The notes below the pieces were generated by a model. That model was not told the origin of the DNA, made no database searches, and saw only the letters and a list, made by a program, of their open reading frames with translations. Position numbers and translations under genes: made by a program. A stretch of 64,000 nt of DNA, from positions 192,001 through 256,000 of the forward strand of contig CAVWLW010000033.1 of NCBI GenBank assembly GCA_963755715.1, in the 5' to 3' direction. Source of the DNA: an uncultured delta proteobacterium. GTDB lineage: Bacteria; Desulfobacterota; Binatia; UBA9968. Positions 45,129-63,774 of this stretch are shown here, one piece after another (the first letter of the stretch is position 1; every line of letters begins with the position of its first letter).

Positions 45129-45438
45129 AGTGGCTCCTTTCTGGTTGCGCAGCGAGATTTTATCACGGCCATCATAACCCAATTCGCAGTCTCGCTGTCA
45201 ATCCTCATGATTACGCTCTTTCGCTGAGTATCGGCCCGGCCGATCCAATGAATATCTAAGCCGCGACGCTGAGCGCCGGGAGAAAAGTCGCGATGCATCG
45301 TTCGCCGGGCTTTCGTGGGTGGCTCATGTTTCGCCACAATTTGCTATGTCCAAATTGACGCGCCACGACGTTGTCGAATTTTAAGCAGGTACTGCTCCTT
45401 TGGATGAGTGAAACTACAGCAACCAGGAGGTACAAGGG

Positions 45439-46360
45439 TCAGTTTTGATGACGTTGCTCGATCGCCAACTTTTCGACGAGCGCATTCTTTACCAATTCTA
45501 CGTTGGTATTTGGAGAATGGCGATGCGCTTCGACGATCATGAGCTGGGTGTTCGGTAAGCCGCCCTCTTTGATTGTGAGAATTTTCAGAGATTTTCTTCG
45601 GACTTCGTCCTTCACCGTAAAATGCGGCAAGACCGTGACGCCAACGCCCGCGCGCGCAGCTTCTTTCCTCGCCCGAAGATTACTTATCGCCATGCCGTTC
45701 GCCGGTAAGGGAAAGTGATACTTCTCCAACGCATCGTCGAGCACGACGGGAAAGTCAATACATTTCTTACACGTGGATAAAAGGCACGGTCTGAAGCTCG
45801 CTCGGGAAACCATCTTTTGTTCGTCAAATCCGATCTGTCGAAGCGATAACGAAGCTGATAGCCGCTCAGATCTGGCGGCACGATGACGATCGATCCACTC
45901 GGCGCGCTGTCCGCCAGCAAGACGGCGAGATCAAGGCTGCCTTGTTGAAGAGACTCGTAGGTAATCGCTCGAGCTTGCGACAGGAACGTCAATTTTAACT
46001 TGGGAAATTGTTTTGAGATGCTGCCAATCACTTCCGGCAAAACATAAATTCCCACGGAGCGGGTCGCGCGATGTGTACTTCCTCCAAATTGCGATTTTTG
46101 AGCGCCAGCAAAGCACCTTGTATGGCGTCGGTTTGAGCAATGACCTCGTGCGCGAAATCGAGAAACAATTCTCCTTCTTTGGTGAGTCTGAATTGGCGCT
46201 GCGATCGCTCGATGAACTTAGATCCGGCTTGTTCTTCGAGCTTGGCGATTTGAGTGCTGATCGCGGCCTGCGACTTGTGCACGCGTGCGGTTGCGCGGCT
46301 GAAGCTCTTGCATGCGCAGACCGCTATCAAGGTCCGAAGATAGTCAGTCGTCAGGTCCAT
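45439..46360 (-). pseudogene. LysR-family regulator split over three frames (pseudogene or sequencing error)
   Basis: HTH SFSRAT..SQAAIS..LEE; substrate-binding domain in ORFs 45684-46055 and 45439-45813. Confidence 0.7.
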
Positions 46361-46585
46361 AACGGAAACGAATCATAGTATCAAAACAATTTATTTGACA
46401 AGGATTGAAATCCTGGCAAGAGGCGTTGAGGAAAGCTTTGCGAAGTGGAGGGCAGGAGCAAGTCAACCAAAATAAAAACTAAAATCAGGAGGCTAACATG
46501 AAAGACCCTGATCCGTAGGTAACTATTTCATGATGTGATTTTGCCAGATCTGCTTTACGGCAATCTAAAGACATAGCGAGAAAGG

Positions 46586-47008
46586 GTGGCCATGTTGAAA
46601 TCCGTATGCGTGCTCTTCGCGGTATTGTTGGTCGCGCCGCTGGCCTCCGCGGAAGTCTTCAAATGTGTGGGAAAATATGGCGAGGCTCTCTATCAGAATT
46701 TTCCCTGCCAGTTTGTGTCGATGGGCGGGATGCCAATGGATACTCCGGGCCCAAAGGAATTACCCGCGGACGTCCCGGGGGCAAAGAAATCACCCACGGA
46801 TGTCTCCGGCGCAAAGAAATCACCCACTGCGTCCGCAGCGCCGCGCGCCGGCATGACGGGCGACGAAGTCAGAGCCATTTGGGGAGAGCCCACGGAGATC
46901 ATTCAGGAGGAGCCGGGCGAAGGTAGTCGCTTCGAGGTCTGGTCATATGGTGACTCTCGCTCCGTGCGCTTTGATCGCAAAAGGCGCGTGTCCTCCGTAC
47001 AAAAGTAG
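46586..47008 (+). CDS. Secreted DUF4124-like protein with C-terminal BamE-like domain
   Basis: Signal peptide, VFKC..G..YQNFPC, GMTGDEVRAIWGEP..WSY. Confidence 0.65.
   Translation: MAMLKSVCVLFAVLLVAPLASAEVFKCVGKYGEALYQNFPCQFVSMGGMPMDTPGPKELPADVPGAKKSPTDVSGAKKSPTASAAPRAGMTGDEVRAIWGEPTEIIQEEPGEGSRFEVWSYGDSRSVRFDRKRRVSSVQK
46751..46834 (+). repeat. About three 30-bp in-frame tandem repeats
   Basis: PKELPADVPG/AKKSPTDVSG/AKKSPTAS. Confidence 0.8.
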
Positions 47009-47150
47009 AATGTGGCGCTCGGGAGGATTGGTCGCGCCTCAAACAAAGCGAGCGATCCGCTCATACAGGCCGCTATCCTTTAGGATTACGTTAAGCAGAA
47101 GCACGGGGGTTGTCTATCGTATCAAAAGCTGAGGTGAAAGGAATAGTCAA

Positions 47151-48789
47151 ATGAAACGACATCCATGCAATACGCAAAGGCGCGTACTGCGCACAGCAAT
47201 ATTCGCGGCTAGTTTGGCCATTCTGGCATTCGGCGGCAACGCACTGGCGGCCAGTGTAAGCCAAAGCGGCGAGCAGAAGAACATGCGTCGCGTGGGGCAT
47301 ACCGACCTGCAAGGGCGGCCTGGCTACCAACCGAACGTTATTCAGTACCCGGATGGAAGATTCATTGCATTCGCCGGCACGCACAGCAATATTCCGGTAA
47401 CCAAACCGGGCTTTACTTTTTTGCCGAACCCGCTGAACAACAATACGGATGAGCCGAACGGAACGATGATCATTGACGTCACCGATCCGAGTAATACGAA
47501 GGAGATGTCCCATATTCCGGTTCCGGTCGCCGGCGGCCAGGCGCAAATGGCGCGGATGTGCCTGGGCTCCGACCTGAACGAGGACCTACGGGGCAAGGTT
47601 TATTTGATGCGCAACATCCAGGGCAATACCGCCCAAATGTCCGGCTACGAAGTCTGGGACGTGACCGATATCAAAAAGCCGGTGCTCGCGTCGGCGCTGC
47701 GGGGGATACGCTCCACGCACAAGCTCTGGTGGGAGTGCGACACCGGCATCGCCTACATGCCGGGCAGCAAGGACTCCGGGCCCTATGGCGTCAAGCGCAG
47801 TCGATGGTAATCGTCGACTGGCAAAACCCGCTACGCTCCTCCAATCTACCTCCGCACGTTCGGTTTGGTCGGTGCGGCAACCAGGCTCGACCGGTGCAGT
47901 GGCCACTTCGCTCCATGGTGCGATCTCGGCGCACGAACATCCTGATGCGGCTAACAAACTGGCCCGTGGGGCCACAGCCGACGACATCATCGGGAACCGC
48001 GTGTACGGGGCATGGGGCGTCGGCGACGATGGCGTGTTGACGATTCTGGACCGGAAGAAGCTCCTACCGCCGCTTAGTGGTGGTCGTGGCGGTAACGTAC
48101 ATGGGCGACCCTGACGCAGCCGACGGAAGCTGACTTGCTGGCTCCGCTGGCCGGGATTCTTTACATGTCCCCGACCAAGGCGGCCACACCTCGATGCCGG
48201 TGTTCGGGTTAAAACCGGCGAGCTATCAGAGCTTCACCGAGTTCCAGACGCGCGACATCGTGCTCTTGGCGTCGGAAGCGACGGCCGACCTGTGTGACGA
48301 GGCGCCGCACTGGAGCTTCGTCGTCGATGTGTCCGTGGAAAATTCGAAGTCCGCCCCTCCAGGCACCAGGGTGCAGCCGAATGTCTTTCAGGGACCCATG
48401 GTCCTGTAGACGATGTCGGTCGATCCGATTTGATGGCGATAAATATCCGCGCGGCAACTACTGCGCGCGTGGAGCGCGCTTCGGTATGCACTCGAGCGAG
48501 GAGAACTTCAATAATCCGTTGTACGGTAAGCTGACGGCGATCGCGCTACTTCACGGGGGGCGTGCGGATTTGGGACATCCGCGAGCCGCAGGCCCCGGTC
48601 GAAGTCGCGTTTTACGTACCTGAGTCCAACGCCAACACCAATCCCGACGGTTACATGACCAACAACGTCGAGATCGACGATCGTGGCTTTATCTACGTGG
48701 TCGATCGTAATGGCGCAGGGTTCGACATCCTGCAGCTGACAGGAAAGGCGCTCGACATCGCCTTCCCGGCGGCACGGCCACTCAGGTAG
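47151..48789 (+). CDS. Secreted LVIVD-repeat beta-propeller protein (multiple frameshifts)
   Basis: NMRRVGHTDLQGR, IIDVTDP, HKLWWEC, RIWDIREP..EVAFYVP, IYVVDR. Confidence 0.7.
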
Positions 48790-49830: not shown

Positions 49831-50823
49831 GTGAGTTCAATGAAATTAAATTTTAACCGACTGTTGTTCTTAGCGCCAATGATTCTGTTCTCATGGCAGA
49901 CAGTTCAAGCGTGGGAACCCACCAAACCCATTGAGTTTGTCATACCGGCCGGCACCGGCGGCGGCGCCGATCAGATGGCGCGGCTGATCAGTGGCATCGC
50001 CGAAAAAAATAAGCTGTCGCCTCGGCCTTTGATCGCCATCAATAAATCGGGCGGCGCCGGGGCTGAGGGATTTCTCTACGTCAAGGAGAAAAAAGGCGAT
50101 CCGCATGTGATCATCATCACGCTGTCCAACCTTTTTACGACTCCACTGCACACCGGGGTGCCATTCAACTGGAAGGACTTAACGCCGATCGCGCGCATGG
50201 CCCTCGATCAGTTTATTCTGTGGGTGAACGCCGAAACGTCCTACAAGACCGCGAAGGAATATATCGCAGCTGTGAAGGCTCAATCGGCCGGAAGCAATAG
50301 AATGAAGATGGGTGGCACGGGCTCGGCGCAAGAAGATCAAATCATCACGATCCAGCTGGAACAGGCGTTGGGAGTCAAGTTTACGTACGTGCCATTTAAA
50401 GGCGGTGGCGAGGTCTGTGTGAATCTGGTCGGCAAGCACATCGATTCGACAGTCAATAATCCCGCCGAATGTGTGAGTCACTGGAAGGCGGGCCGCGTGC
50501 GACCGCTGGCAGTTTTCGACACCGCGCGAATTGCCGATGAGAATTGGAAAGGGATACCTACGATCAAGGAAGCGCTCGGCGCCGACATCCACTATCTCAT
50601 GCTGCGCGGCATCTTCGGCGCGCCCGGAATACCGAAAGATGCCGTGCAATGGTACATCGATTTTCTGAAAAAAGTTTACGATTCGGCAGAGTTCAAGAAA
50701 TATCTTTCCGAAGGCGCGCTGAAGCCCGCGTTTGCGACCGGCGATGAGTACGTCAAGTGGATCGAGGCCAACGAACAGCTCCATAAAGATTTGATGGCCA
50801 AGGGCGGATTGCTCAACAAGTGA
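49831..50823 (+). CDS. tctC: Tripartite tricarboxylate transporter substrate-binding protein
   Basis: PAGTGGGAD, NKSGGAG, YVPFKGGG. Confidence 0.9.
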   Translation: MSSMKLNFNRLLFLAPMILFSWQTVQAWEPTKPIEFVIPAGTGGGADQMARLISGIAEKNKLSPRPLIAINKSGGAGAEGFLYVKEKKGDPHVIIITLSNLFTTPLHTGVPFNWKDLTPIARMALDQFILWVNAETSYKTAKEYIAAVKAQSAGSNRMKMGGTGSAQEDQIITIQLEQALGVKFTYVPFKGGGEVCVNLVGKHIDSTVNNPAECVSHWKAGRVRPLAVFDTARIADENWKGIPTIKEALGADIHYLMLRGIFGAPGIPKDAVQWYIDFLKKVYDSAEFKKYLSEGALKPAFATGDEYVKWIEANEQLHKDLMAKGGLLNK

Positions 50824-50824
50824 G

Positions 50825-51286
50825 ATGCGCACCGCGGATTTCATCACCGCTGCTATTTTGCTGCTGTTGGGCGTCGTCGTTCTCTTCGATGCCATCCGCC
50901 TCGGTTTCGGTTGGGGCACAGATGGCCCAAAGAGCGGATTCTTCCCGTTTTGGCTGGCGCTCATTATGGTCGTGACTTGTGGATTAATTATTCTTCAGAC
51001 TTTGCGGCGACCGTCCGGTGAAACATTTGTCACGCGGCAACAGCTCGGTCCGGTCCTCAAAGTGATTTGGCCCGCAACGGCGATGGTGCTACTCACGCAT
51101 TTCGTCGGCCTGTATGTCGCCGCTGCCCTTTATATCGGCTTTTACATGCGCTGGGTCGGACGCCACTCCTGGTTTAGCGTAGTTGGAATTGCGGTTGCGG
51201 TCCCTGTTATCAGTTTCGTCATTTTTGAATTGTGGTTCTTGGTGCCGATGCCGAAGGGACCGCTCGAGAACTGGCTGGGCTACTGA
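50825..51286 (+). CDS. tctB: TTT small permease
   Basis: 4 TM segments, GFFPFW, VPMPKG. Confidence 0.88.
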   Translation: MRTADFITAAILLLLGVVVLFDAIRLGFGWGTDGPKSGFFPFWLALIMVVTCGLIILQTLRRPSGETFVTRQQLGPVLKVIWPATAMVLLTHFVGLYVAAALYIGFYMRWVGRHSWFSVVGIAVAVPVISFVIFELWFLVPMPKGPLENWLGY

Positions 51287-52806
51287 TGGGGCTGGAAAAT
51301 ATTTTTCTCGGGTTTGAGCAGGCACTGGCGCACCAGAACTTGCTTTATGCTGCCATCGGCATCACTCTTGGCACGATCATCGGCGTGCTTCCGGGCTTGG
51401 GCGGCGCAAACGGGGTCGCGATTTTGTTGCCGCTCACACTGCGCATGCCGCCGACCTCGGCGATCATCCTGCTCACATCTATTTATTGGGGAGCGCTGTT
51501 CGGCGGCGCCATCACTTCGGTGCTGTTCAACATCCCCGGCGAGCCGTGGTCCGTGGCGACCACGTTTGACGGTTACCCGCTGGCGCGACAGGGGAAAAGT
51601 GGCCAAGCGCTGACGGCTGCGTTCACTTCCTCGTTCATCGGGGCTCTGTTTGCAACCGTGCTCATCACTTTTTTTGCCCCTCTACTTGCCGACGTGGCGC
51701 TCAGATTCGGCCCGCCGGAAATATTTTCGATTCAACTGCTGACCTTCTCCGCGTTCGTTGGCCTGGGCGGAGGCAATCCTCTTAAAACCGTGGTCTCGAT
51801 CATGATCGGATTTATATTGGCTACGGTTGGTCTCGATATCGTCACTGGGCAGCTGCGCATGACGTTCGGCGTTACCTCGCTCATGCAGGGCTTTGATTTT
51901 ATCATAGCCGTCATCGGCCTCTTCGGGATCGGCGAGATCATGCTTTCCGTCGAGGAAGGGCTGAGCTTCAAAGGGGTCAGCAGCAAGATGAACCTCTTCG
52001 TGGTTCTGGAAACCTGGAAAATTTTGCCGCGCTATTGGCGCACATTCATGCGCAGTTGTCTCATCGGGTTTTGGATGGGCTTCAAACCTGGCGGCGCGAC
52101 TCCCGCTTCGTTCATGAGCTACTCCTTCGCAAAACGCTTCTCCAAAAACCCCGAAGAGTTCGGCAAGGGTGCACTGGAAGGCGTCGTCGCCCCGGAGACA
52201 GCAGCCCATGCCGCAGGTGTCGCGGCGATGCTGCCAATGATCACGCTGGGAATCCCGGGGTCGCCGACTGCGGCCGTGATGCTCGGCGGACTGATCATAT
52301 GGGGACTGCAACCCGGTCCATTGCTCTTCACGGAGAAGCCGGAGTTCGTCTGGGGACTAATCGCGAGCATGTACACCGGCAACATCCTCGGCGTGCTTAT
52401 GGTTCTGGCGTTCGTACCTTTTTTCGCGGCCATTCTGCGCATTCCATTTGCGATTCTCACGCCACTCATCGTCGTGCTCTGCGCTATCGGTTCGTACGCT
52501 GTGCACAACGCCATGATCGATGTTTGGTATATGCTGCTGTTCGGGGTGGTGGGATACGTTTTCAAGAAACTTGATTACCCATTGGCGCCTCTGGTCCTGG
52601 CGCTGGTCCTGGGTGATATGGCGGAGAACGCACTGCGGCAGAGCCTGATCATGTCGCAAGGATCATTGGCCATTTTTCTAAATCGACCGATCGCCGGAGT
52701 GATCACAGCCGTGGCCTTGTTATTTTTCATGATGCCCATCATCACGCCGTGGTGGCGGCGATTACGCGGACTGCCCGCGGCAACGCCGGCTCCTCGGGAA
52801 ATTTGA
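51286..52806 (+). CDS. tctA: TTT large permease
   Basis: GVLPGLG, NIPGE, APETA, LGIPGS, PGP. Confidence 0.93.
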   Translation: MGLENIFLGFEQALAHQNLLYAAIGITLGTIIGVLPGLGGANGVAILLPLTLRMPPTSAIILLTSIYWGALFGGAITSVLFNIPGEPWSVATTFDGYPLARQGKSGQALTAAFTSSFIGALFATVLITFFAPLLADVALRFGPPEIFSIQLLTFSAFVGLGGGNPLKTVVSIMIGFILATVGLDIVTGQLRMTFGVTSLMQGFDFIIAVIGLFGIGEIMLSVEEGLSFKGVSSKMNLFVVLETWKILPRYWRTFMRSCLIGFWMGFKPGGATPASFMSYSFAKRFSKNPEEFGKGALEGVVAPETAAHAAGVAAMLPMITLGIPGSPTAAVMLGGLIIWGLQPGPLLFTEKPEFVWGLIASMYTGNILGVLMVLAFVPFFAAILRIPFAILTPLIVVLCAIGSYAVHNAMIDVWYMLLFGVVGYVFKKLDYPLAPLVLALVLGDMAENALRQSLIMSQGSLAIFLNRPIAGVITAVALLFFMMPIITPWWRRLRGLPAATPAPREI

Positions 52807-52827
52807 TCGTCGCTTAGAGACTCGTCG

Positions 52828-53511
52828 ATGGAACTAATAGTTCAGCCAGAGTTCTGGGCTCGTTGGCTAGGGATTGTCGTCATCGATCTCTCACTCGCCG
52901 GTGATAATGCTTTAGTGATCGCCATGGCGGTGCTTAGCTTACCCCCTCGGCAACGAATGATTGGCTTGATCGGCGGAACTGTCGGCGCCGTGGTGCTGCG
53001 CATCGTCCTCATCGCGGTCATCACGCAGATACTTCTTATTCCGTTTCTTCAAGCGCTCGGCGGCCTGGTTCTAGTTTGGATCGCCATGAAGCTGGTGCGA
53101 CAGGACGCGAGCGACACGAAGGGGCACAAAGTACGTGAGGTCGCCACACTTTGGGAAGCGATCGGAATCATCATCGTTGCGGACCTGATCATGAGTCTCG
53201 ACAATGTCTTAGCGGTGGCCGCCACCGCGCACGGTGACCTTACACTCGTGCTTTTTGGCATCGGACTTTCCATTCCGATCGTGATTTGCGGCAGCACTCT
53301 GTTGGCGCGCCTTATGGATCGCTTCCGTTGGATCGTGTGGCTCGGTGGAGGCGTGCTTGGCTGGGTGGCGGGAGATCTCGCCATCACTGACACATTGGTC
53401 CGCGCCTCCATCGGCTCGTGGGACTCGATCCTGCATTGGGCTTTGCCTAGCCTGTTGGCTGCTACAGCGATAATGCTGGGCTGGCGGAGTGCTTATGTCG
53501 CGAGCCGATAA
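52828..53511 (+). CDS. TerC/YjbE family membrane protein
   Basis: DLSLAGDNALVIA, ADLIMSLDNVLA. Confidence 0.9.
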   Translation: MELIVQPEFWARWLGIVVIDLSLAGDNALVIAMAVLSLPPRQRMIGLIGGTVGAVVLRIVLIAVITQILLIPFLQALGGLVLVWIAMKLVRQDASDTKGHKVREVATLWEAIGIIIVADLIMSLDNVLAVAATAHGDLTLVLFGIGLSIPIVICGSTLLARLMDRFRWIVWLGGGVLGWVAGDLAITDTLVRASIGSWDSILHWALPSLLAATAIMLGWRSAYVASR

Positions 53512-53595
53512 CCAGGCGACCGCGGGCAGGTTCTCCTGCGCGAACTGGCTGTCTATCTCTCTTCAAAACTTCGAAAATTTTCTCCTGACCTTCTG

Positions 53596-53638
53596 TTGAC
53601 AACGTGGTCGGGGCTGGATAGAAAACTGGTCTGACCAG
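53596..53638 (+). promoter_or_regulatory. Sigma70 promoter plus FadR-type operator
   Basis: TTGACA-17nt-TAGAAA followed by the palindrome CTGGTCTGACCAG. Confidence 0.75.
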
Positions 53639-53654
53639 CAGACAGCTGGACCCT

Positions 53655-54349
53655 ATGCTTAAAGTCATAAAAAAGACGCGCATCCACGAGGAAGTTTTCA
53701 GTCAGATTCACGAGCTGATCAAGCAAGGTCGACTCAAGGCCCGCGACCAACTGCCGTCGGAGCGCGAACTGGCCGAGACCTTCAAAGTCAGCAGGACTTC
53801 GGTGCGCGAGGCGCTCCGCACATTGGAAAGTCAGGGGCTCATCGTCAGCAAAACCGGCATGGGCAATTTCGTCGTCGATCTTCCGGTTGAAGCTCTGGTG
53901 GGACCGCTCGCGCGATTGCTGATCGACGAAAAAAAGGCGCTCGCGGATGTCTTCGAGCTGCGCAAGCTGATCGAACCGCATATCGCCGCCTTGGCGGCCG
54001 AGCGCGCAACGGCGACAGACGTCGCGAAACTGAAAAAGATCGTCGCCAAGCAAACCGAAGCGGTGAGTCGCGGCGAGACCGGAGTCGAAGCCGACGCTGA
54101 ATTGCATTTATGCATCAGCCGCGCCACGCAAAATCAGGCGCTGCAGAAATTGGTGTCGGGGTTGATGGAAATGTTCAGCCGCAGCCGCGAAGAGTCGTTG
54201 CAGACGGATAAGCGGCGAAAGGCATCCATCGAGACTCACCGAAGGATCATCGCCGCTATCGAAAAGCATGACCGCATCAAGGCTCGCAAAGAAATGAATT
54301 GCACATCGAGCAGGTCGAAGCGAGCGTGTTGCTGTCCAGCCGGGTATAA
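53655..54349 (+). CDS. GntR/FadR-family regulator (frameshift near 54297)
   Basis: LPSERELAETFKVSRTSVREAL, FCD domain; terminal HIEQVE..RV* in another frame. Confidence 0.9.
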
Positions 54350-54390
54350 AAAAACCAGCGTAACGAGGTCACCAAAGAGAGGAGGGTTTG

Positions 54391-55590
54391 ATGATCAAAT
54401 GCGTAGAGGTCAACTATCGAGGTATCTTTCAAAAGAACCTGGGTAAAAAGATCGGCAGCGACATTGTCATGATCGCCAGCCGCATGGGCCAGAAAGCCTT
54501 TTCCAACGGGCGCTACAGCGATTCGCCGGAAAGAAACGGCATCCCGTGCAAGTATTTTGCTTTCGTTTCGCCGGATCTTGCCGAGGAGGAACTGGAAGCG
54601 GAATGCGGCGCCAAGCTCGAGATCGATGAAGCCAACATCTCCGTCGTCTTGGACGACACGATGTGCAAGGGTGTCGAGCCGTGGGGATGGCACGGTATCC
54701 GCCCGATCAATGAACGGGTGGTCAAGGACGGCTGCCTCCTGGTGGTGTCCAAGAAAACACCGGAAGAGCTGTTAAAATTCATCGGCAAGAAGCCGTACAA
54801 CTATCGAATCGCAATCCTCGACGGCGACGCCAGTCTCGCTGGACTTTGGGTCAACAAGGATGACATGACCCATGAGCACATCTTGGGCGGCATCGCAGCC
54901 ATCGATCCGACGCTTATCAGCATCGAGGCGGTTGAAGCTTATCTGATGGACAAGACAAAGCAGAAGCACCGTGTTGAGGCCGCGCGCGCGGCATTCGAGT
55001 CGCTCAGGCAGGAGGCTAAGCCTCCTAAAGTAACGACCGTGACACCGGAAGACGGAATCGTGTGGCTGCATGAGATACCCGTGCTGCCCAAGTGGTTCGA
55101 GATGCAAGAGGGAGCTGTAGTTCCGGCAGTGAAGCGCGGTTTCGAAATGGGACCGAGGGGACAAAACAGAAACCCCGGCTTCAAGCGCGGCACGACCAAG
55201 ACGCAGAGACCCGCGGTCAGGTTCGATCTCTGCACCAAGTGCACGCTCTGCTGGGTCGAGTGTCCGGACGAGTGTTTCGATCCGACCACGGATGGCTTTT
55301 ACGACATCGACTATCAGTATTGCGTCGGTTGCGGGAAATGCGCTCAAGTATGTCCGGTTAAAGAATGCATCGTCATGGTGGATGAACTCCAATTCAAGGA
55401 CGACTCGAGTCCGTGGGAACACTGGAAAAGGGATTCCAACGACTACATTCAGTGGGTAGAGGACAAAAAGGGCAAAGACCGGGTTTCTTACCCCTTCGTC
55501 ACCGGCAAGGGCATGACCGTTACTCAGGGAGATGTGATGCCCGAGGGCAAGATAGTGCCCGTGAGAAAAACCGAGGAGGTCGAAGTATGA
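54391..55590 (+). CDS. Oxalate oxidoreductase-like gamma/delta fusion subunit
   Basis: RYSDSPERNG gamma motif; CTKCTLCWVECP and CVGCGKCAQVCP. Confidence 0.8.
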   Translation: MIKCVEVNYRGIFQKNLGKKIGSDIVMIASRMGQKAFSNGRYSDSPERNGIPCKYFAFVSPDLAEEELEAECGAKLEIDEANISVVLDDTMCKGVEPWGWHGIRPINERVVKDGCLLVVSKKTPEELLKFIGKKPYNYRIAILDGDASLAGLWVNKDDMTHEHILGGIAAIDPTLISIEAVEAYLMDKTKQKHRVEAARAAFESLRQEAKPPKVTTVTPEDGIVWLHEIPVLPKWFEMQEGAVVPAVKRGFEMGPRGQNRNPGFKRGTTKTQRPAVRFDLCTKCTLCWVECPDECFDPTTDGFYDIDYQYCVGCGKCAQVCPVKECIVMVDELQFKDDSSPWEHWKRDSNDYIQWVEDKKGKDRVSYPFVTGKGMTVTQGDVMPEGKIVPVRKTEEVEV

Positions 55591-56830
55591 GTGTCGCACT
55601 CGCAACAGCCAAATCAGATCAATCAGGGGTCTACGAGCGGGAAGACCTTTTAAACGGCTGCCAGGCGGTCGCGCAGGGCGTGTGTCTCGCCGACGTGGAT
55701 GTGATCGCCGCTTATCCGATCCGTCCCTACACCGAAGTGATGGACGCCCTCTCGAAGCTGATCGCCGACGGGAAATTCGACGCCGAGTACATCATCGCCG
55801 ACAGCGAGCATTCCCAATTCGAGATCGTCAAGCACGCCAGCTCGGTGAACGCGCGCGCCTTCGGCGGTTCGAGCGGCACGGGCTGGATGTACGGTATGGA
55901 AGCGCTGGTCGTTACCGCGACCGACCGTCTTCCGCCTCTTTTCGTGGTCGGCAACCGCGCTTTGGATGATCCCGGCGCTTTCGGCGTCGAGCACAACGAC
56001 GCGATGTCGGTCCGCGACATGGGCTGGCTTCTCTGCTGGGTCACGACGCCGCAGGAGGCGCTCGAACACGTGCTGATCGGCTACCGCATCGCCGAGGACA
56101 AGACAGTCAGGATGCCGATGGGATTGGCGATGGACGGCGCCTTTCTCACCCACTCGCAACACATGGTCAAAATCCCATCGGTGGAGGCGGCGAAGAAATT
56201 CCTGCCGCAGTACGATCTCGCCGAGCGGCGGCTCCATCCCGACAACCCGATCTCGGTCGCGCCGCAAGCCAACGAGGATTGGGTTATGGAGATTCGCAGG
56301 CAAAATTGGGAAGCCGCCAAGCGGGCGCGCGGTGTCATCAAGGATGCTTATAAGGAATTCAACGATATTTTCGGCGATCGCTACGCCGCGCCTTACTATT
56401 TCGACGAGTTCATGACCGACGACGCGGAAGCGGTCCTGATCGGCGTTGGTACGGTGGCAGCTCCAGCGCGCACGGCGGTCAGGCGCTTGCGTGAGAAGGG
56501 ACAGAAGGTCGGCTACGTGGAATCTGCGCTGGTTCCGGCCCTTCCCGACGGTGGAGCTGCGCGAGTCCCTGAGCCGCTTTAAAGCGGTCGGTGTCGTCGA
56601 CAGGGACTTCGCTCACGGCTCGCCCGACAATTGCGGCATCTTGATGCACGAAGTCCGATCCTGCCTCTATCCGGCGAAGAACCGGCCGGCGATCGTTAAT
56701 TTCATGGGTGGTTTGGGCGGGCGCGATCTGTCGATCGCCGACTGCTCAGAAGATGTTCGAAATCACCCAACAGGCGGCGAAGAAAGATTCCCTGGATGAA
56801 TACGTAACCTGGATCGGCCTAAGAGAGTAA
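55587..56830 (+). CDS. Oxalate oxidoreductase-like alpha subunit (frameshifts near 56520 and 56745)
   Basis: YPIRP, DSEH, GNRALDDPG, RWFRPFP, GLGGRD; ATGA overlap with the previous gene. Confidence 0.8.
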
Positions 56831-56844
56831 ATAGGAGAAACATT

Positions 56845-57840
56845 ATGTCGACCGTACCGACAATCGATTACGAGAAAGTCAAAGGCGTTCACAAAATTCC
56901 GCTGGAAGAGCTCTATACTTCCGGCCATCGGACCTGCCAGGGCTGCGAGTCGGCGACGACCATGCGCGGCTTCATCAAGGTTGCGGGTTCGCGCTCGGTG
57001 GTCACAGGAGCAACCGGTTGCATGTACGTGGCCAACACTTCGTACATGACCACGCCGTGGATCGTGCCGTGGATGCACACGCAGCTCGGCGCCGGCGGCT
57101 CTTCGGCCGTGGGCATGGCGGCGGGCCTGCGAGCGCTCAAGCGCAAGGGCAAGATCAAAGACGAGAAGATCAACGTCATCAATTTCTCCGGCGATCTCGG
57201 CGCCGGCGATATGGGCATCGGCGGCATCTCCGCCGCGTTGCAGAGCGATTACGACTTGCTGATTATCATGTACGACAACGAATCGGCCGCCAATACCGAT
57301 ATCCAAGCAACAGGCTCGACGACTTACGGCGCGCAGACGACCTTCACGCCTCCGGGAACCAAGCATCCGATCATGCAGAGGCGCTGGAAGAAGAACGTCG
57401 CCGGCATGCTTGCCGTCGGCCATCCGACCTGCCGTTACGTTGCCACTGCCTGCGCTACCTTTCCGCCGACGGATTATCTGAACAAGGTCCAAAAGGCGCT
57501 CGCCATCGGCGGCCCGACCTTCATCCACACCTACGATCCCTGTCCAAAGGGTTGGGACTATCATCCGCGCTACTCCAACGAGCTTGGCGAGTTGGGAATC
57601 AAATGCGGCATCTATCCGCTGTATGAAATCGTCGACGGCAACGTCATTTACACCTGGGACGCGCGCAAGACGGGCAAGGGACGCATTCCGGTCAAGGAGT
57701 TTATCTCCAAGCAGGGGCGCTTCGATCATCTCAAAGAAGAACACTACGCGCATATTCAAAACATGGTCGATCAAATGTGGGAAGAGTGGCAGATTCCCGG
57801 TGTCGCGCCATTGCGAGGGATTCTGAAGGCTAGGATTTAG
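56845..57840 (+). CDS. Oxalate oxidoreductase-like beta (ThDP/4Fe-4S) subunit
   Basis: GHRTCQGC, TGC, SGD..DNESAANT, PCPKGW. Confidence 0.85.
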   Translation: MSTVPTIDYEKVKGVHKIPLEELYTSGHRTCQGCESATTMRGFIKVAGSRSVVTGATGCMYVANTSYMTTPWIVPWMHTQLGAGGSSAVGMAAGLRALKRKGKIKDEKINVINFSGDLGAGDMGIGGISAALQSDYDLLIIMYDNESAANTDIQATGSTTYGAQTTFTPPGTKHPIMQRRWKKNVAGMLAVGHPTCRYVATACATFPPTDYLNKVQKALAIGGPTFIHTYDPCPKGWDYHPRYSNELGELGIKCGIYPLYEIVDGNVIYTWDARKTGKGRIPVKEFISKQGRFDHLKEEHYAHIQNMVDQMWEEWQIPGVAPLRGILKARI

Positions 57841-57888
57841 GGAAACTGCGGCAATAAGCTTTCCGCTTCGGTTCTGCCCAATTAACTC

Positions 57889-57928
57889 CCGCTGACATGC
57901 ACGGACGAAAGGCCGCGCATGTCAGCGG
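57889..57928. terminator. Strong hairpin after the beta subunit
   Basis: CCGCTGACATGC..GCATGTCAGCGG 12-bp stem. Confidence 0.55.
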
Positions 57929-58332
57929 TGAGAAGATTTTATCAAGCCAAACATCGCCGATCGCCACGTGCGACGCTCGTCGATAGACCGCCACTCAGTG
58001 GACGGGTGTAAAGCTTGAGCACGACCGCTAGATTCTGTATCCTAAGGAGGAAGCTTGAGAGACTGCAAGCATCGGCGAGTAAACGAACAGGTAGACCAAG
58101 CGTTCCAGACCTAAGTCTGACAGTTCATCCGCGCGATATTTGTCTCAGCTTTACAAAAAGATTTTTCACGCGCTGAGTTAGACCGTTGAATAACGAACGG
58201 GCCGGCAAAGCGATGCTTAATGTGCTTGCCGCGGTCGATCGCGCTGAATAGGTCTGTTGGCCAGTCGACGCTGGATTGGCTTGCAACGGTCGAACTTAAT
58301 TTTTTCAGGCAACGAGTCGAAGGGAGGCAATC

Positions 58333-60045
58333 ATGGCAACGACCGGCGAAACTAAAAAAGAAGCTAGCGGCCCAGTGATCTCCGGCGGGCATCTGGTCGC
58401 CAAAGCGTTAAAGAATGAAGGCGTCGAAGTGATCTGGACGCTTTGCGGCGGCCATATCATCGACATCTACGACGGCTGCATCGACGAAGGCATCAAGATC
58501 ATCGACGTGCGCCATGAGCAGGTCGCGGCCCACGCCGCCGACGGCTACTCACGCCAGAGCGGGAAGATCGGTTGTGTCGTAACGACCGCCGGACCGGGCA
58601 CGACTAACGCGATGACGGGCATCGCCAATGCCTTTCGCGCCGAGAGTCCGCTCTTGATGATCGGCGGGCAGGGCGCGCTCTCGCAGCACAAGATGGGCTC
58701 CCTGCAAGATCTGCCGCACGTCGATATCATGTCGCCGATAACGAAATTCGCCGCCACCGTGCCGCATACAGAACGCATCGCCGACATGGTGTCGATGGCT
58801 TTTCGCGAGTCGGTGAACGGGGCGCCGGGGCCGAGCTATCTCGAAATCCCGCGTGACGTGCTCGACGCTAAAGTGCCGCTCGAACGGGCGCGTATCCCCA
58901 AGCCTGGTGCCTATCGCGCCTCGACTAAATCTGTCGGCGATCCGGCCGACATTGAAAAACTTGCAGACATTCTGGCCAAATCCGAACGGCCGGCAGCATT
59001 GTTCGGTACCCAGGTCTGGACCTGTCGCGGCCACGATGCGGCGGTGGAATTTTGCCGCGCTCTCAATGTTCCCGGTTACATGAACGGCTCAGGACGCGGC
59101 ATCTTCGCGCCCGGCGATCCGCATGGTTTCAATCGCACGCGTAGTTTGGCGTTCGACAAAGCCGACGTGATCCTGATCGTCGGCTGTCCGTTCGATTTTC
59201 GTCTCGGTTATGGGAGGCGTTTGCGCGCCGATGCGACCGTCGTGCAGATCGATCTCGATTATCGCAACGTCGGCAAGAACCGCGACGTTTCGCTCGGCAT
59301 GGTCGGCGATTGCGGCGCGATTCTCAAGGCCGTAGAGCAGGCCGCGTCCGGCCGCGCCTCGAAAGGCAACGCGCAGCGCGCCGAGTGGATGAAAGAGCTC
59401 CGCGCCGCGGAGGCCAAGGCGTACGAAAAACTCTTGCCGTCGTTCAAATCGGAGTCCGTGCCGATCAATCCTTATCGGGTCGCTTACGAGATCAACGAAT
59501 TTCTGACCGACAACACGGTTTACATCGGCGACGGCGGCGATGTGGTCACGATCACCGCGACGGCCGTGGAGCCGCGCAAAGCCGGCAACTGGATGGATCC
59601 GGGTCCGCTCGGCACGCTCGGTGTCGGCACTTCGTTCGCGATGGCGACCAAGTTCGTTCATCCGAAAAAAGAAGTGCTGTGCTACTACGGCGACGGCTCG
59701 TTCGGCATGACGGCGTGGGACATGGAAACCGCGCAGCGCTTCAAATTGCCCTACATGGCCGTGATCGGCAACAACTCAGCGATGAATCAGATCCGCTGCG
59801 GCCAGATCGGTAAGTATGGTCCCGAGCGCGGCGGCGTGGGCAATAAGCTTGGCGACGTGGATTTCGAGAAATTCGCCGACTGTTTCGGTGGCTGGGGCAT
59901 CGCGGTGCGCGAGCCGAGCCAGATTCGTCCCGCGTTGGAAAAAGCGCGCGAACGGGTCGCCGGCGGTCAGTGTGCCATCGTCAACATCTGGGTCGACATC
60001 AATGAATACGCGCCAGGCACCAAGGCGCAGACGATGTACAAATGA
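58333..60045 (+). CDS. ThDP-dependent enzyme, oxalyl-CoA decarboxylase/2-hydroxyacyl-CoA lyase-like
   Basis: RHEQ, TAGPG, MDPGPLGTLG, GDGSFG..NN; directly upstream of frc. Confidence 0.75.
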   Translation: MATTGETKKEASGPVISGGHLVAKALKNEGVEVIWTLCGGHIIDIYDGCIDEGIKIIDVRHEQVAAHAADGYSRQSGKIGCVVTTAGPGTTNAMTGIANAFRAESPLLMIGGQGALSQHKMGSLQDLPHVDIMSPITKFAATVPHTERIADMVSMAFRESVNGAPGPSYLEIPRDVLDAKVPLERARIPKPGAYRASTKSVGDPADIEKLADILAKSERPAALFGTQVWTCRGHDAAVEFCRALNVPGYMNGSGRGIFAPGDPHGFNRTRSLAFDKADVILIVGCPFDFRLGYGRRLRADATVVQIDLDYRNVGKNRDVSLGMVGDCGAILKAVEQAASGRASKGNAQRAEWMKELRAAEAKAYEKLLPSFKSESVPINPYRVAYEINEFLTDNTVYIGDGGDVVTITATAVEPRKAGNWMDPGPLGTLGVGTSFAMATKFVHPKKEVLCYYGDGSFGMTAWDMETAQRFKLPYMAVIGNNSAMNQIRCGQIGKYGPERGGVGNKLGDVDFEKFADCFGGWGIAVREPSQIRPALEKARERVAGGQCAIVNIWVDINEYAPGTKAQTMYK

Positions 60046-60091
60046 CAGCTGCCTAGAGCAAAACCGGACGCGAAGACGCAAGCATGGCATT

Positions 60092-60171
60092 CACCACGAA
60101 GGACACGAAGAGCACGAAGTTCGGAATATCAATAGTACGAACCCTTCGTGTCCTTCGTGATCTTCGTGGTG
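60092..60171. repeat. REP-like palindrome built from CACGAAG units
   Basis: CACCACGAAGGACACGAAGAGCACGAAG..CTTCGTGTCCTTCGTGATCTTCGTGGTG. Confidence 0.8.
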
Positions 60172-60203
60172 AGATTGAATTTTCTTAAGGAGAAAATAAG
60201 TCG

Positions 60204-61444
60204 ATGGCAAAAGCGCTTGATGGAGTTCGCATACTCGATATGACCCACGTGCAGTCCGGGCCGACTTGCACGCAAATGTTGGCGTGGTTCGGCGCCGACG
60301 TGATCAAAGTCGAACTGCCCGGCCGCGGCGACATCACGCGCGGCCAACTGCGCGACAAGCCGAATGTCGACAGCCTCTATTTCACCATGCTCAATTGCAA
60401 CAAGCGGAGCATCACGATCAATACCAAAACGAAAAGGGCAAAGAAATTTTTCGCGAACTGATCAAGGTGTTGTGACGTGATCGTGGAGAACTTCGCGCCC
60501 GGAGCGCTGGACCGGCAAGGGTTCACTTGGGAAGCGATTCACGGGCTCAATCCGCGGATCATTTACGCGTCGGTGAAGGGCTTCGGACCCGGTCCTTACG
60601 AAGATTGCAAAGTTTACGAGAACGTCGCCCAGTGCACCGGCGGTGCGGCGAGCACGACCGGATTCGACGACGGCCCGCCGCTGGTGACCGGCGCGCAGAT
60701 CGGCGACTCCGGCACCGGGATGCATTTCGTCGCCGGAATTTTGCGGCGCTTTTTCAACGTGAAAAAGGCTGGAAGGGGACAGCGCGTCACTTGCGCGATG
60801 CAGGATACGGTGCTCAATCTCTGCCGTGTCAAGCTGCGTGATCAACAACGACTCGCCGCCGGACCGCTGGAGGAATATCCGCAATATCCCAATGGCGTCT
60901 TCGGCGACGCCGTGCCGCGCGCGGGCAATGCATCGGGCGGCGGCCAGCCGGGCTGGGCGGTGCGCACCAAAGGCGGCGGACCGAACGATTATATTTACGT
61001 CATCATTCAGCCGCCGGGTTGGGAGCCGTTGATGAAGCTCTGCGGCCGGCCCGAGCTGATCACCGATCCTGAATGGGCGACGCCGGAAAAGCGTTTGCCG
61101 AAGCTCGGTCAATGTTTCGAGATCATCGAGCAGTGGACGATGACCCTCGATAAGTTGGAGGTCATGCGCAAGCTCAACGAGATTCGACGTGCCGTGCGGG
61201 CCGATCCTCGACATGCGCGAGATCGCGGAAGAGCGAGCGCTGCGCGAAACCGGCACGGTCGTCGAAGTGGATCATCCGAAGCGGGGAAAATTTCTGACGG
61301 TCGGTAATCCGATCAAGCTGTCGGATTCGCCGACGGATGTTAAACGTCGCCGTTCCTGGGCGAGCACACGGACGAGATCTTGCGATCCATCGTCGGCTGG
61401 AGCGATCAGAGATGACGACGGCGCGAAAAGAGGGCGCGATCTAA
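60204..61444 (+). CDS. frc: Formyl-CoA:oxalate CoA-transferase (several frameshifts)
   Basis: [46 protein letters not shown]. Confidence 0.9.
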
Positions 61445-61527
61445 ATCCTGCAACCCTGAGGCGACAAAACTGATTCACCACAAATTTGTACGGTTCGATT
61501 TTGGTTTAGATCGAACTGCGTTCAAGA

Positions 61528-61602
61528 AAGATTTCTCGCTTCCCGCTCGAAATGACATTCGCTATTGCACGACTGTCATCTCGAACGAATGTGAGAGATC
61601 TT
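61528..61602. repeat. REP-like imperfect inverted repeat
   Basis: AAGATTTCTCGC..CTCGAAATGACA / TGTCATCTCGAAC..GTGAGAGATCTT. Confidence 0.7.
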
Positions 61603-61663
61603 TCTAAATCCAACAGCGCGCGCTTCATAAGCGCCCAACCTAACCGAATTTTCGGAGGTGTCG

Positions 61664-63774
61664 ATGAATAAAAAAACTTTGCGCGCCACGATCAACTCCG
61701 ACTCGCCGCCGGACGCGGGCTTAAGCGCGCCGAGGCGCAAGAATTCTGCGACGCCTACGGTATTCCGACGCCGAAACAAGCGCTAGCGAAAACTGCAGCC
61801 GAAGCGGTGAAAATCGCTGCACGATTAGGGTTCCCCGTCGTCCTAAAAATTGTCTCGGACGATATTCTTCACAAAACCGAAGCGGGTGGCGTGATCGTTG
61901 GACTCAATAATGCAGCTGATGTTCGGCGCGCTTTCGATCGTCTCGTCAAAAACGCCAAGGGATACAAGAAAAACGCCAGCATCCAAGGTGTTCAGGTCCA
62001 ACAGATGCTCAAGGGCGGACAGGAAGTCCTGGTCGGCGCTGTGACGGATCCGAGTTTTGGCAAAATGATTGCGTTCGCTTTGGGCGGCGTACTGGTCGAA
62101 GTGATGAAAGACATCACGTTTCGCATGACGCCGGTCGGCAAGAAAGAGGCGCTCTCGATGCTGGATTCAATTGCCGCGGCGGAAGTGCTGCGCGGCGTGC
62201 GCGGCGCGAAAGGCGTGAGCCGCTCCGCGCTGGCCGATATCATCGCCAAAGTTTCCAAGATGGTAAACGATTTTCCCGAGATTCTCGAAGTCGACCTCAA
62301 TCCGATCTTCGCGACGGAGAAGGGCGCGCGCGCCGTCGATGTGCGTATCGTGATCGGCGATAAGCCGCAAACGCGCCAGCATTTCGATCAAAGCGCGATT
62401 CTCGCCGCCATGCAGCGTATCATGAACCCGCGCTCCGTCGCCGTAATCGGCGCTTCCGCCGAGGACGGCAAGATCGGCAACTCCGTGATGAAAAATCTCA
62501 TTAACGGCGGCTATCAGGGCGCGATCTATCCGATCCATCCGAAAGCTCAGGAGATCCTGGGGCGCAAGGCCTATCCGAGCGTGCTCGACGTCGCCGAGGA
62601 AATCGACGTCGCAGTGTTCGCGATACCGGCGAAATTTTGCGCCGCGGCGATGGATGAAGTGGGGCGGAAAAAAATTCCCGGCGCGGTCATGATTCCTTCC
62701 GGCTTCGCCGAGGTCGGCGAGCAGGCGCTGCAAGACGAGCTGCTCGGCGTCGCCCGCAAGCACAACGTGCGCATCATGGGGCCGAATATTTACGGATTTT
62801 ATTACACGCCGCAAAATCTCTGCGCGACTTTCTGCACTCCTTACGACGTCAAGGGCAAAGTCGCGCTCAGCTCGCAATCGGGCGGGGTCGGCATGTCGAT
62901 CATCGGCTTTTCGCGCACCACGCGCATGGGCGTGTCGGCGATCGTCGGATTAGGCAACAAATCGGACCTCGATGAAGACGATCTGCTGACCTATTTCGAG
63001 CAGGACGAAAACACTCAAGTCATCGCCATGCATTGCGAGGATTTAAAAGACGGCCGGTCTTTCGCCGAAGTAGCAAGCCGCGTTTCAAAAAAGAAACCCA
63101 TCGTCATGCTCAAGGCGGGCCGCACGGCGCTGGGCGCGCGCGCCGCGGCATCGCACACCGGCGCCTTGGCCGGCAACGACAAGATCTACGACGACGTGCT
63201 GCGCAATTGCGGCGTCATTCGGGCGAAGAGTTTAAACGATATGTTGCAGTTCGCGCGCGGCCTGCAAGTGCTGCCGACGCCGAAGGGAGAAAATATCGTG
63301 ATCATCACCGGAGCCGGCGGATCGGGCGTTCTCTTGTCGGATGCCTGCGTCGACAACGGCTTGTCGCTCATGAAAATGCCGCCGGACATGGACGCCGCGT
63401 TTCGCAAATTTATCCCGCCCTTCGGCGCCGCCGGCAATCCCGTCGACATCACCGGCGGCGAGCCGCCGACGACTTATGCGAACACGATTCGCTACGCGCT
63501 CGGCGAGCCGCGCATTCATTCGCTGATTCTCGGCTACTGGCACACGATCATCACGCCGCCGATGGTCTTCGCCAAACTTTGCGCCGAAGTTGTTCAAGAA
63601 GCGCGCGACAAAGGCATCGATAAACCGGTGGTAGCGTCACTCGTCGGCGACGTGCAGGTGGAAGAGGCGAGCGAGTATCTCTACGAGCGCGGCATCGTGG
63701 CTTATCCGTACACGACGGAGCTGCCGGTTGCGGTGCTCGGCGCGAAGTACAAATGGGCGCGCGGGGCGGGGTGA
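61664..63774 (+). CDS. ADP-forming acyl-CoA synthetase, ATP-grasp domain N-terminal (frameshift in first 150 nt)
   Basis: HKTEAGGV, DLNP, VAVIGAS, GPN, SQSGG, SHTGALAG, NPVD. Confidence 0.88.

Follow-up and report, generated by a model that had tools for sequence, protein, structure and literature searches.

An earlier note on the DNA analyzed here, a 64,000-nucleotide window from the genome of an uncultured Candidatus (Ca.) Binatia soil bacterium (7.4 Mb in 76 contigs; window G000:C33:192001-256000), proposed that a single cluster holds two routes of oxalate catabolism, one through an oxalate oxidoreductase (OOR) and one through an oxalyl-CoA decarboxylase (Oxc) working with formyl-CoA:oxalate CoA-transferase (Frc). 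Open reading frame (ORF) calling and family scans bore out the eleven co-oriented genes reported there, all on the + strand at 49831-63774 and laid out as transporter and accessory genes and two modules in the order tctC, tctB, tctA, terC, then fadR, oorD, oorA, oorB (module 1), the gene of a thiamine diphosphate (ThDP) enzyme, frc, and the gene of an ADP-forming acyl-CoA ligase (module 2, the CoA module):

49831..50823, + strand: tctC, periplasmic binding protein of a tripartite tricarboxylate transporter (TTT), probable oxalate importer (PF03401)
50825..51286, + strand: tctB, small membrane subunit of the TTT (PF07331)
51286..52806, + strand: tctA, large membrane subunit of the TTT (PF01970)
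52828..53511, + strand: terC, accessory membrane protein of the TerC/YjbE family (TIGR03717, 204.9 bits, cut-off 134.8)
53655..54394, + strand: fadR, GntR repressor of the FadR subfamily, frameshifted near 54300 (PF00392, GntR; PF07729, FCD)
54391..55590, + strand: oorD, domain III joined in one protein to a ferredoxin domain with 2x[4Fe-4S] (NF045790, 5c4i_B)
55587..56830, + strand: oorA, alpha subunit of the clade named OOR-II below, with two assembly frameshifts (5c4i_A, E 5e-74)
56845..57840, + strand: oorB, OOR-II beta subunit, binding ThDP and the proximal [4Fe-4S] cluster (5c4i_C, E 3e-78; NF045792)
58333..60045, + strand: ThDP enzyme of a family resembling 2-hydroxyacyl-CoA lyase (HACL) and Oxc, probable non-canonical oxalyl-CoA decarboxylase (NCBIfam models, gene context)
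60204..61444, + strand: frc, formyl-CoA:oxalate CoA-transferase, with several assembly frameshifts (TIGR03253)
61664..63774, + strand: ADP-forming acyl-CoA ligase of the fused beta-alpha type, probably priming oxalate with CoA

The probable start of tctA is the ATG at 51286, judged from the N terminus of its orthologue in locus L003 (loci fetched from other genomes carry the prefix L), and the ORF caller had placed it at 51232. For the ligase the caller chose 61807, and the true 5′ end is frameshifted.

Four of the eleven genes are broken in the window: fadR near 54300, oorA twice, near 56520 and near 56743, frc repeatedly between 60434 and about 61420, and the ligase at its 5′ end near 61700. 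Such breaks would be expected if the cluster were decaying in the window strain, in which case the dual route would be inoperative. Against this, all of the frameshifted genes are intact in the near-identical metagenome-assembled genome (MAG) loci L001 (95.6% nucleotide identity to the window) and L003, and seven breaks (54296, 56519, 56743, 60433, 60465, 60740, and 60762) show the intact letter count in contigs of independent public runs. Unrelated neighboring genes are equally fragmented, a LysR gene into three pieces and an LVIVD-like gene into four, and RNA-labelled soil runs contain near-identical pieces of the cluster. We therefore reject the pseudogene reading, which we consider extremely improbable, and conclude that the single-base indels in fadR, oorA, frc, and the ligase gene are assembly errors; the window assembly presumably derives from long reads. 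Intact orthologues from L001, a Ca. Binatia MAG whose oorB is the closest genome match to that of the window (100% identity), and from L003 stood in for the frameshifted genes in the analyses below.

The closest PDB match of all three oxidoreductase subunits is the OOR of Moorella thermoacetica (5c4i_A, 5c4i_C, and 5c4i_B for alpha, beta, and delta), and the OOR subunit layout is present, with a delta subunit that joins domain III to 2x[4Fe-4S]. Alignments to 5c4i show that Arg109-alpha is kept in the window, as are Gln211-alpha and Asn143-beta, both of which we take to be functional OOR residues. The window alpha subunit carries the motif YPIRPY, and [YF]PIRPY is found in 66 of 66 OOR-II alpha subunits, drawn from the best 80 of 269 OOR-II loci. 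According to PMC5020499, YPIRP, with Arg31 in place of the Thr of YPITP, is unique to OOR; Arg31 binds oxalate and, together with Asp116, drives the mechanism, and a role for Arg109 is described in the same source. The delta subunit of the window has no GRGGQG loop and ends in a C-terminal extension of about 60 residues. In enzymes of the pyruvate:ferredoxin oxidoreductase (PFOR) type, the glycine-rich loop of domain III binds CoA. A GxGGxG pattern occurs in none of 60 OOR-II delta subunits, all of which have the N-terminal motif YRG[IV][FY]QK, and HGRGGQG is present in three of three PFOR gamma controls; the loop is also missing from the delta subunits of the Moorella enzyme (MtOOR) and of Moorella-type loci (OOR-I) that were read.

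An IQ-TREE phylogeny of 36 of 179 alpha sequences placed the 16 YPIRP rows in one clade (support 100/100), apart from 20 rows of the YPITP type. Short fragments and near-copies were left out of the trees, and MtOOR itself was represented by five OOR-I proxies that pass NF045791. Within the clade, OOR-I (six rows, 100/99) and OOR-II (nine rows, 100/99) are sister groups, with one odd sequence beside OOR-II; a FastTree analysis of 67 rows agrees with this topology. PFOR/VOR identity was thus rejected, since all 66 OOR-II alpha subunits carry [YF]PIRPY and the tree places OOR-II with OOR. By motif and phylogeny, the oxidoreductase of the window is assigned to a divergent sister clade of Moorella OOR, which we call OOR-II. 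Hence the earlier identification as an OOR rather than a PFOR or VOR stands as to grouping, YPIRP, and the missing glycine loop, and has to be qualified because the clade is divergent, lacks Asp116, and falls below the OOR family cut-offs. In databases, OOR-II is labelled "pyruvate ferredoxin oxidoreductase". A second OOR-II subclade (58-61% identity) was seen in related Binatia (L111, L113, L114, and P0241), with a DDPGAF loop and fadR upstream, and P0246 has a third loop type, DDPGNF. The host genome contains two further POR_N genes elsewhere.

The transporter and regulator of the window recur at Moorella-type loci. At L105-L108 the order is fadR-oorD-oorA-oorB, followed by a TTT or by an OxlT that passes TIGR04259. 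Genes for TctA, TctB, and TctC are all present in the window, whose TctC is 81% identical to its L003 orthologue; the latter is in turn 60% identical to the TctC adjoining the oor operon of L105, and 42% identical to that of another OOR-I locus. L105 also has terC, which among all loci fetched recurs only there and in the OOR-II locus L052. A Cdc48-type AAA+ ATPase gene heads four of four OOR-I loci (L105:4962-7127, L106:4729-6897, L107:386-2530, and L108:9-1085). None adjoins oor in the OOR-II loci fetched, and a search of the host genome for this ATPase gave only partial AAA-domain matches.

The 80 OOR-II loci comprise 38 Binatia-like and 42 distant ones. Among the distant loci, oxlT is present at five, panE at three, frc at two, and an AMP-forming ligase gene at six; OxlT passes its cut-off in L043, L048, and L049, and Frc does so in L049. 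OOR-II is thus independently tied to oxalate genes in distant taxa. A further 24 OOR-II genomes, picked because their loci had no frc nearby and of unreported completeness, gave no Frc, and five Acidobacteria gave neither decarboxylase (see below), so OOR-II usually stands without a CoA route. A phylum-wide sample of 301 genomes gave two OOR-II-level matches and seven weaker ones (four OOR-I, three PFOR). On plasmids no OOR-II was found (best match 36%). A gene for an FAD/NAD ferredoxin-reductase-like protein follows oorB at L061:6439-7671 and also in L055, L058, L060, and L072, mostly from Dehalococcoidia/Chloroflexota; its best models, NirB and PadH, are below cut-off, and it is a possible NAD-coupling partner of OOR-II. 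In two Acidobacteria, oxlT, a 358-aa gene with no NCBIfam match at E <= 1e-30, frc, fadR, and oorDAB lie together (L048:2107-10975 and L049:2805-12608).

In the CoA module, the identity of Frc proved genuine, as the earlier note had it. The intact L001 orthologue scores 684.9 bits on TIGR03253 (cut-off 504.2), the window copy, read through its frameshifts, scores 525.6, and the L003 orthologue is 59% identical to E. coli Frc. HVQSGP, GDSG, and GGGQ align with E. coli Frc, so that Gln17, Asp169, and the glycine loop of the residue list in PMC10192776 are all present.

The ThDP enzyme is less easily named. It scores 431.6 bits on PRK05858 (cut-off 587), 323.3 on the HACL model NF058623 (cut-off 600), and 220.7 on the Oxc model TIGR03254 (cut-off 739.4); its orthologues reach 341-375 bits on the HACL model, again below cut-off. 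Identity to E. coli Oxc is 25%. The cofactor-activating Glu (Glu56 type) is kept, RHEQ aligning with E. coli Oxc, a superfamily-wide feature that is not diagnostic. In the Tyr483 region the window reads IRCG, isolate orthologues IRYG, and E. coli IYRG, in an alignment of ambiguous register. The label Oxc therefore does not hold as first given, the Tyr-Glu pair of the active site also being absent (see below), and the supposedly classic route is itself a variant.

Gene context ties the ThDP enzyme to Frc. Orthologues (64-71% identity) occur in nine plasmid-collection records. In all five isolate records examined (Phyllobacterium, Streptomyces, Cupriavidus, Caballeronia, and Nonomuraea), the ThDP gene directly precedes frc and the same ligase is nearby. 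Major facilitator superfamily (MFS) genes of the OxlT type lie within about 7.5 kb in four of these five loci (identity to OxlT is 55% at three of them and 24% at the Streptomyces locus), and panE is likewise found in four of five. Canonical oxc was absent from the four carrier replicons scanned, which did not include the Nonomuraea record; other Cupriavidus and Caballeronia replicons carry it. We also scanned the host genome and 60 relatives, a set of kin whose counts are not independent. Frc passes its cut-off in 38 of the 61 genomes, a ThDP orthologue is present in 40, and canonical oxc was found in none, the host included. The two genes are adjacent in 37 of 38 frc genomes, and in the exception frc lies near a contig start. 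We conclude that pairing of the ThDP gene with frc is near-obligate; because of this adjacency and the absence of canonical oxc from the set, the ThDP enzyme is a likely substitute for Oxc. An frc-linked ThDP subfamily in Burkholderia xenovorans was previously assigned an Oxc role by inference (PMC2776528); it may be either this family or canonical Oxc.

All best curated models of the ligase are below cut-off. Its closest solved structure is 8wzu, an ADP-forming 4-hydroxybutyrate-CoA ligase, relative to which the domain order in the window is reversed. The earlier note had suggested formate/ATP production by the CoA route. We infer from stoichiometry that substrate-level ATP from the ligase is to be rejected: every formyl-CoA is made from an oxalyl-CoA, at the cost of the latter's thioester, so the reversed ligase would give no net ATP. 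Nor was OxlT, the antiporter, found in the host genome (best match 24.5%). Net ATP through the ligase is unlikely, and priming is the more likely role. Elsewhere, the host genome encodes a formate dehydrogenase that passes its cut-off and three subunits of the heme-copper oxidase family. A stand-alone formyltransferase-like gene lies at L125:16779-17693, about 3.5 kb downstream of frc and past the ligase; a formyltransferase-like gene of the host is at G000:C33:310094-311005, about 54 kb past the window.

As to the proposal that both routes share one locus, the two modules are indeed adjacent, each of them with a key enzyme that is a variant of the textbook one. The linkage itself is confined to Binatia-like loci. 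The ThDP gene and frc accompany OOR-II at 11 of the 80 loci, all 11 among the 38 Binatia-like ones and none among the 42 distant ones; among loci with at least 2.5 kb of downstream sequence the count is 10 of 28, and among those with both flanks long it is 1 of 8. Nine paired loci are co-oriented like the window, and two are divergent with the TTT between the modules. In the host genus (31 genomes), the ThDP gene is present in 22 and a close oorB in 11; the two genes adjoin in 10 of the latter, and in the remaining one the contig ends just past oorB. OOR-II occurs without the CoA module in other genera of the host family; conversely, 18 of 19 genomes of another family have the CoA module but no OOR-II. 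Pairing is thus restricted to some members of a single Binatia lineage; other genomes have one module without the other.

Two promoters and an operator were predicted within the cluster:

53596..53624, + strand: predicted sigma-70 promoter of fadR-oorDAB, read from the sequence (TTGACA, 17 nt, TAGAAA)
53626..53638, + strand: predicted FadR/PdhR-type operator palindrome, CTGGTCTGACCAG, just downstream of the -10 element
58015..58043, + strand: predicted promoter of the ThDP-frc-ligase module, found by alignment (TTGAGC, 17 nt including TG, TATCCT)

Most fadR orthologues have TTGACA or a near match at the corresponding upstream position, and the palindrome pattern occurs in 25 of 34 fadR upstream regions. 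In the 64-kb window it has one match against 0.08 expected, and 8 of 100 shuffled windows had at least one. The pattern of the second promoter is found in 15 of 20 ThDP upstream regions, from which it was itself drawn, and twice in the window; no FadR operator was found at it. A generic scan of promoters and terminators yielded nothing above chance (4 against 6.5, and 13 against 17.5) and did not list the fadR promoter. In the ThDP leader of about 290 nt (58044-58332), whose conservation is patchy, there was no credible Rfam match (three at chance level) and no consensus fold (-0.17 kcal/mol). A single 11-gene operon was rejected in view of the two conserved promoters and of the variable placement of the TTT genes, oriented divergently in L003 and L125 and lying downstream elsewhere. 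The two modules would thus stand under separate predicted promoters, which would allow differential use. In L125:9217-11886 and L132:8911-11531, oorDAB is missing, the second promoter was not found, and fadR directly precedes the ThDP gene; these loci represent a natural deletion or a pre-insertion state of the cluster. Since fadR heads the ThDP gene there, one regulator serves either arm, which suggests that one effector suits both. Contigs from three of six RNA-labelled soil runs cover 28 of 30 bins each, with DNA carry-over possible. They include near-identical pieces of the oor genes and, for one run, of the ThDP gene, indicating presence in RNA libraries and not levels, so that the two modules cannot be ranked by expression.

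Several observations weigh against a dual oxalate route. OOR-II falls below all three NCBIfam OOR cut-offs: delta scores 93.1 bits on NF045790, its best NCBIfam match (cut-off 230), beta 333 on NF045792 (cut-off 590), and intact alpha orthologues 374-377 on NF045791 (cut-off 500; L001 alpha, 374.2), on which Moorella-type control alphas score 566-587. Asp116-alpha, present in Moorella-type sequences, is replaced by Ala in the window alpha, as in 66 of 66 OOR-II alphas, and Tyr141-beta is Ala throughout the clade (77 of 77). The fold is not diagnostic, as the AlphaFold model of alpha (pLDDT 89.1) matches 5c4i at a TM-score of 0.92 and an archaeal PFOR at 0.91 (Foldseek). Moreover, 33 of the 42 distant OOR-II loci have no oxalate marker in the available DNA, on contigs that are often short, no electron acceptor is encoded in the cluster, and the relatives counted above are kin rather than independent samples. 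The cut-offs missed, the low alpha identity to MtOOR (41%), and the two changed residues would all suit an enzyme of another small 2-oxoacid, such as glyoxylate or mesoxalate, as would a tartronate-semialdehyde-reductase-type gene near three distant loci; oxalate would then be degraded by the CoA module only. Yet Arg31, suited to a second carboxylate, is invariant, and OOR of the Moorella type has a matching cassette of regulator and transporter. The mobile active-site loop reads DDPGAF in OOR-II versus DPPGDF in the Moorella type, and position 113, Pro in OOR-I, is invariantly Asp in OOR-II; Asp113 could take over the role of Asp116. Furthermore, in five Acidobacteria with oxalate-type genes beside OOR-II, neither canonical Oxc nor the window-type ThDP enzyme was found in the genomes, so OOR-II is the likely oxalate-oxidizing step there. 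A changed substrate is, in our judgment, unlikely, and it is highly probable that OorDAB oxidizes oxalate without CoA. The same Acidobacteria also hold a point that the dual-route model leaves unexplained, since L048 and L049 have frc beside OOR-II with neither decarboxylase found.

The ThDP enzyme raises the opposite alternative, in which it is a 2-hydroxyacyl-CoA lyase and only OOR-II handles oxalate. Glycolate or another small hydroxy acid would then be activated by the ligase and cleaved by the lyase to formyl-CoA and an aldehyde, and Frc would dispose of the formyl-CoA. The enzyme does score higher on the HACL model (323 bits) than on Oxc (221-234), and its top PDB matches are HACL/HACS enzymes. 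The Tyr120/Glu121 pair, which positions the oxalyl group in Oxc (PMC7190790), is replaced by Leu and Gln (GSLQD for GDYEE). Two isolate loci have a formaldehyde or aldehyde dehydrogenase gene nearby, and Binatota have been described as methylotrophs (PMC8262859). However, the HACL cut-off is missed too. The partner in 37 of 38 genomes is an Frc of the oxalate type that passes its cut-off, with no canonical oxc found, and four of five isolate loci have MFS genes of the oxalate/formate antiporter type and four of five panE. The ThDP gene also uses the same FadR that heads oorDAB. We regard the lyase alternative as improbable, and think it quite probable, from this gene context, that the ThDP enzyme decarboxylates oxalyl-CoA.

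Taken together, the best explanation of the locus is an oxalate-use island of two independently mobile modules. On balance we favor a scheme in which both arms consume oxalate imported by the TTT, one yielding low-potential electrons and the other formate. In this scheme TctABC would import oxalate, and an oxalate-related effector would release FadR from an operator overlapping its own promoter, so that fadR-oorD-oorA-oorB is transcribed. OorDAB would bind oxalate through Arg31 and Arg109 at ThDP and carry out its CoA-independent oxidation to 2 CO2. Three [4Fe-4S] clusters would relay the two electrons to an acceptor encoded outside the locus, either a ferredoxin or a flavoprotein. In module 2, the ADP-forming ligase would prime oxalyl-CoA, the non-canonical ThDP enzyme would convert it to formyl-CoA, and Frc would release formate from formyl-CoA by passing its CoA on to another oxalate. 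The formate may be oxidized by formate dehydrogenase or used as a one-carbon unit. No net substrate-level ATP would be gained from module 2. Within the host genus, module 2 is the common route, to which module 1, controlled by FadR, has been added. The arrangement fits an oxic formate route with an inducible route to low-potential electrons, between which an oxygen-dependent switch is plausible. More tentatively, and with somewhat less than even confidence, the locus may join two undescribed enzymes under separate control: an OOR class without Asp116 and the Cdc48 partner, perhaps using Asp113, in hosts with aerobic respiratory chains; and a widespread non-canonical decarboxylase primed by an ADP-forming oxalate-CoA ligase, with oxygen shifting the balance between formate and low-potential electrons.

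Some further features of the window were noted. Upstream of the cluster, 44130-48760 encodes an aldo/keto reductase, a LysR regulator, and a secreted protein labelled LVIVD-like without a Pfam match; homologues lie near the cluster in L003, L007, L012, L013, L018, or L125. Intergenic sequences at 60060-60180 and 61500-61620 resemble inverted repeats. Near 61557-61590, high depth and loose read ends suggest a genome-wide repeat.

The interest of the locus rests more on the two enzyme families than on their co-location. In a literature search that took in mostly open papers and did not extend to the primary OOR papers, no description of the pairing, the OOR-II clade, or the decarboxylase family was found; no paper on oxalate in Binatia came up, and the main text of a Binatota survey (PMC8262859) does not contain the word oxalate. 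Surveys of oxalotrophy use oxc, frc, oxdC, and oxlT as markers (PMC13409138; PMC10192776). Standard gene surveys would miss both key enzymes, each a relative of a textbook enzyme, and because it has no canonical oxc and no OxlT, the host genome would score as frc-only. Soil metatranscriptomes contained 31,497 frc versus 2,452 oxc transcripts (PMC10192776), and several phenotypically oxalotrophic strains of Burkholderia sensu lato are reported to lack oxc (PMC13184526). The ThDP family, annotated "acetolactate synthase", gave 7,832 matches at E <= 1e-100 when 8,000 were scored; more distant ThDP relatives may be among them. This family is a candidate decarboxylase for the frc/oxc gap, with culturable carriers; if its proposed role is correct, it would explain part of the difference in counts and some oxalotrophs without oxc. 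OOR-II, for its part, is a natural test of the role of Asp116; through it, oxalate oxidation at the level of ferredoxin would no longer be confined to one acetogen but would take in common soil lineages.

Among known systems, MtOOR (EC 1.2.7.10; 5C4I, 5EXD, and 5EXE) is the nearest relative of module 1. Both have domains I-II in alpha, VI in beta, and III-V in delta, and share YPIRP/Arg31, Arg109, Gln211, Asn143-beta, and the absence of a GRGGQG loop, as expected of sister clades; a fadR-oorDAB cassette with a transporter is common to the window and the Moorella-type loci. OOR-II differs in its alpha sequence, in the Ala at Tyr141-beta, and in a delta subunit about 80 residues longer, and unlike MtOOR its hosts include presumed aerobes (Binatia, Chloroflexota, Acidobacteriota, and Thermoplasmata). 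Module 2 resembles the Oxc/Frc pathway of Oxalobacter formigenes, E. coli (yfdEVUW), and Paraburkholderia phytofirmans in that a true Frc immediately follows a ThDP enzyme belonging to the superfamily of Oxc. Here, however, the ThDP enzyme has only 25% identity to E. coli Oxc and no Tyr-Glu pair, priming would be by an ADP-forming ligase rather than by a CoA-transferase, and uptake would be through a TTT rather than OxlT, giving no antiport-driven proton motive force. With HACL/HACS (8VZA, 7PT3, and 6XN8; NF058623) and PRK05858, the ThDP enzyme shares its top scores, the L-Q motif, and a formyl-CoA that is released or used; it is set apart from them by falling below both cut-offs, as a distinct family, 64-76% identical across phyla and tied to frc. 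The ligase, finally, has the CoA-binding, flavodoxin-like, and ATP-grasp domains of ADP-forming acyl-CoA synthetases, and its SHTG motif aligns with both the Nitrosopumilus-type enzyme (8WZU) and archaeal ACD (4XYL), from which it differs in its N-terminal ATP-grasp domain and in missing all curated cut-offs.

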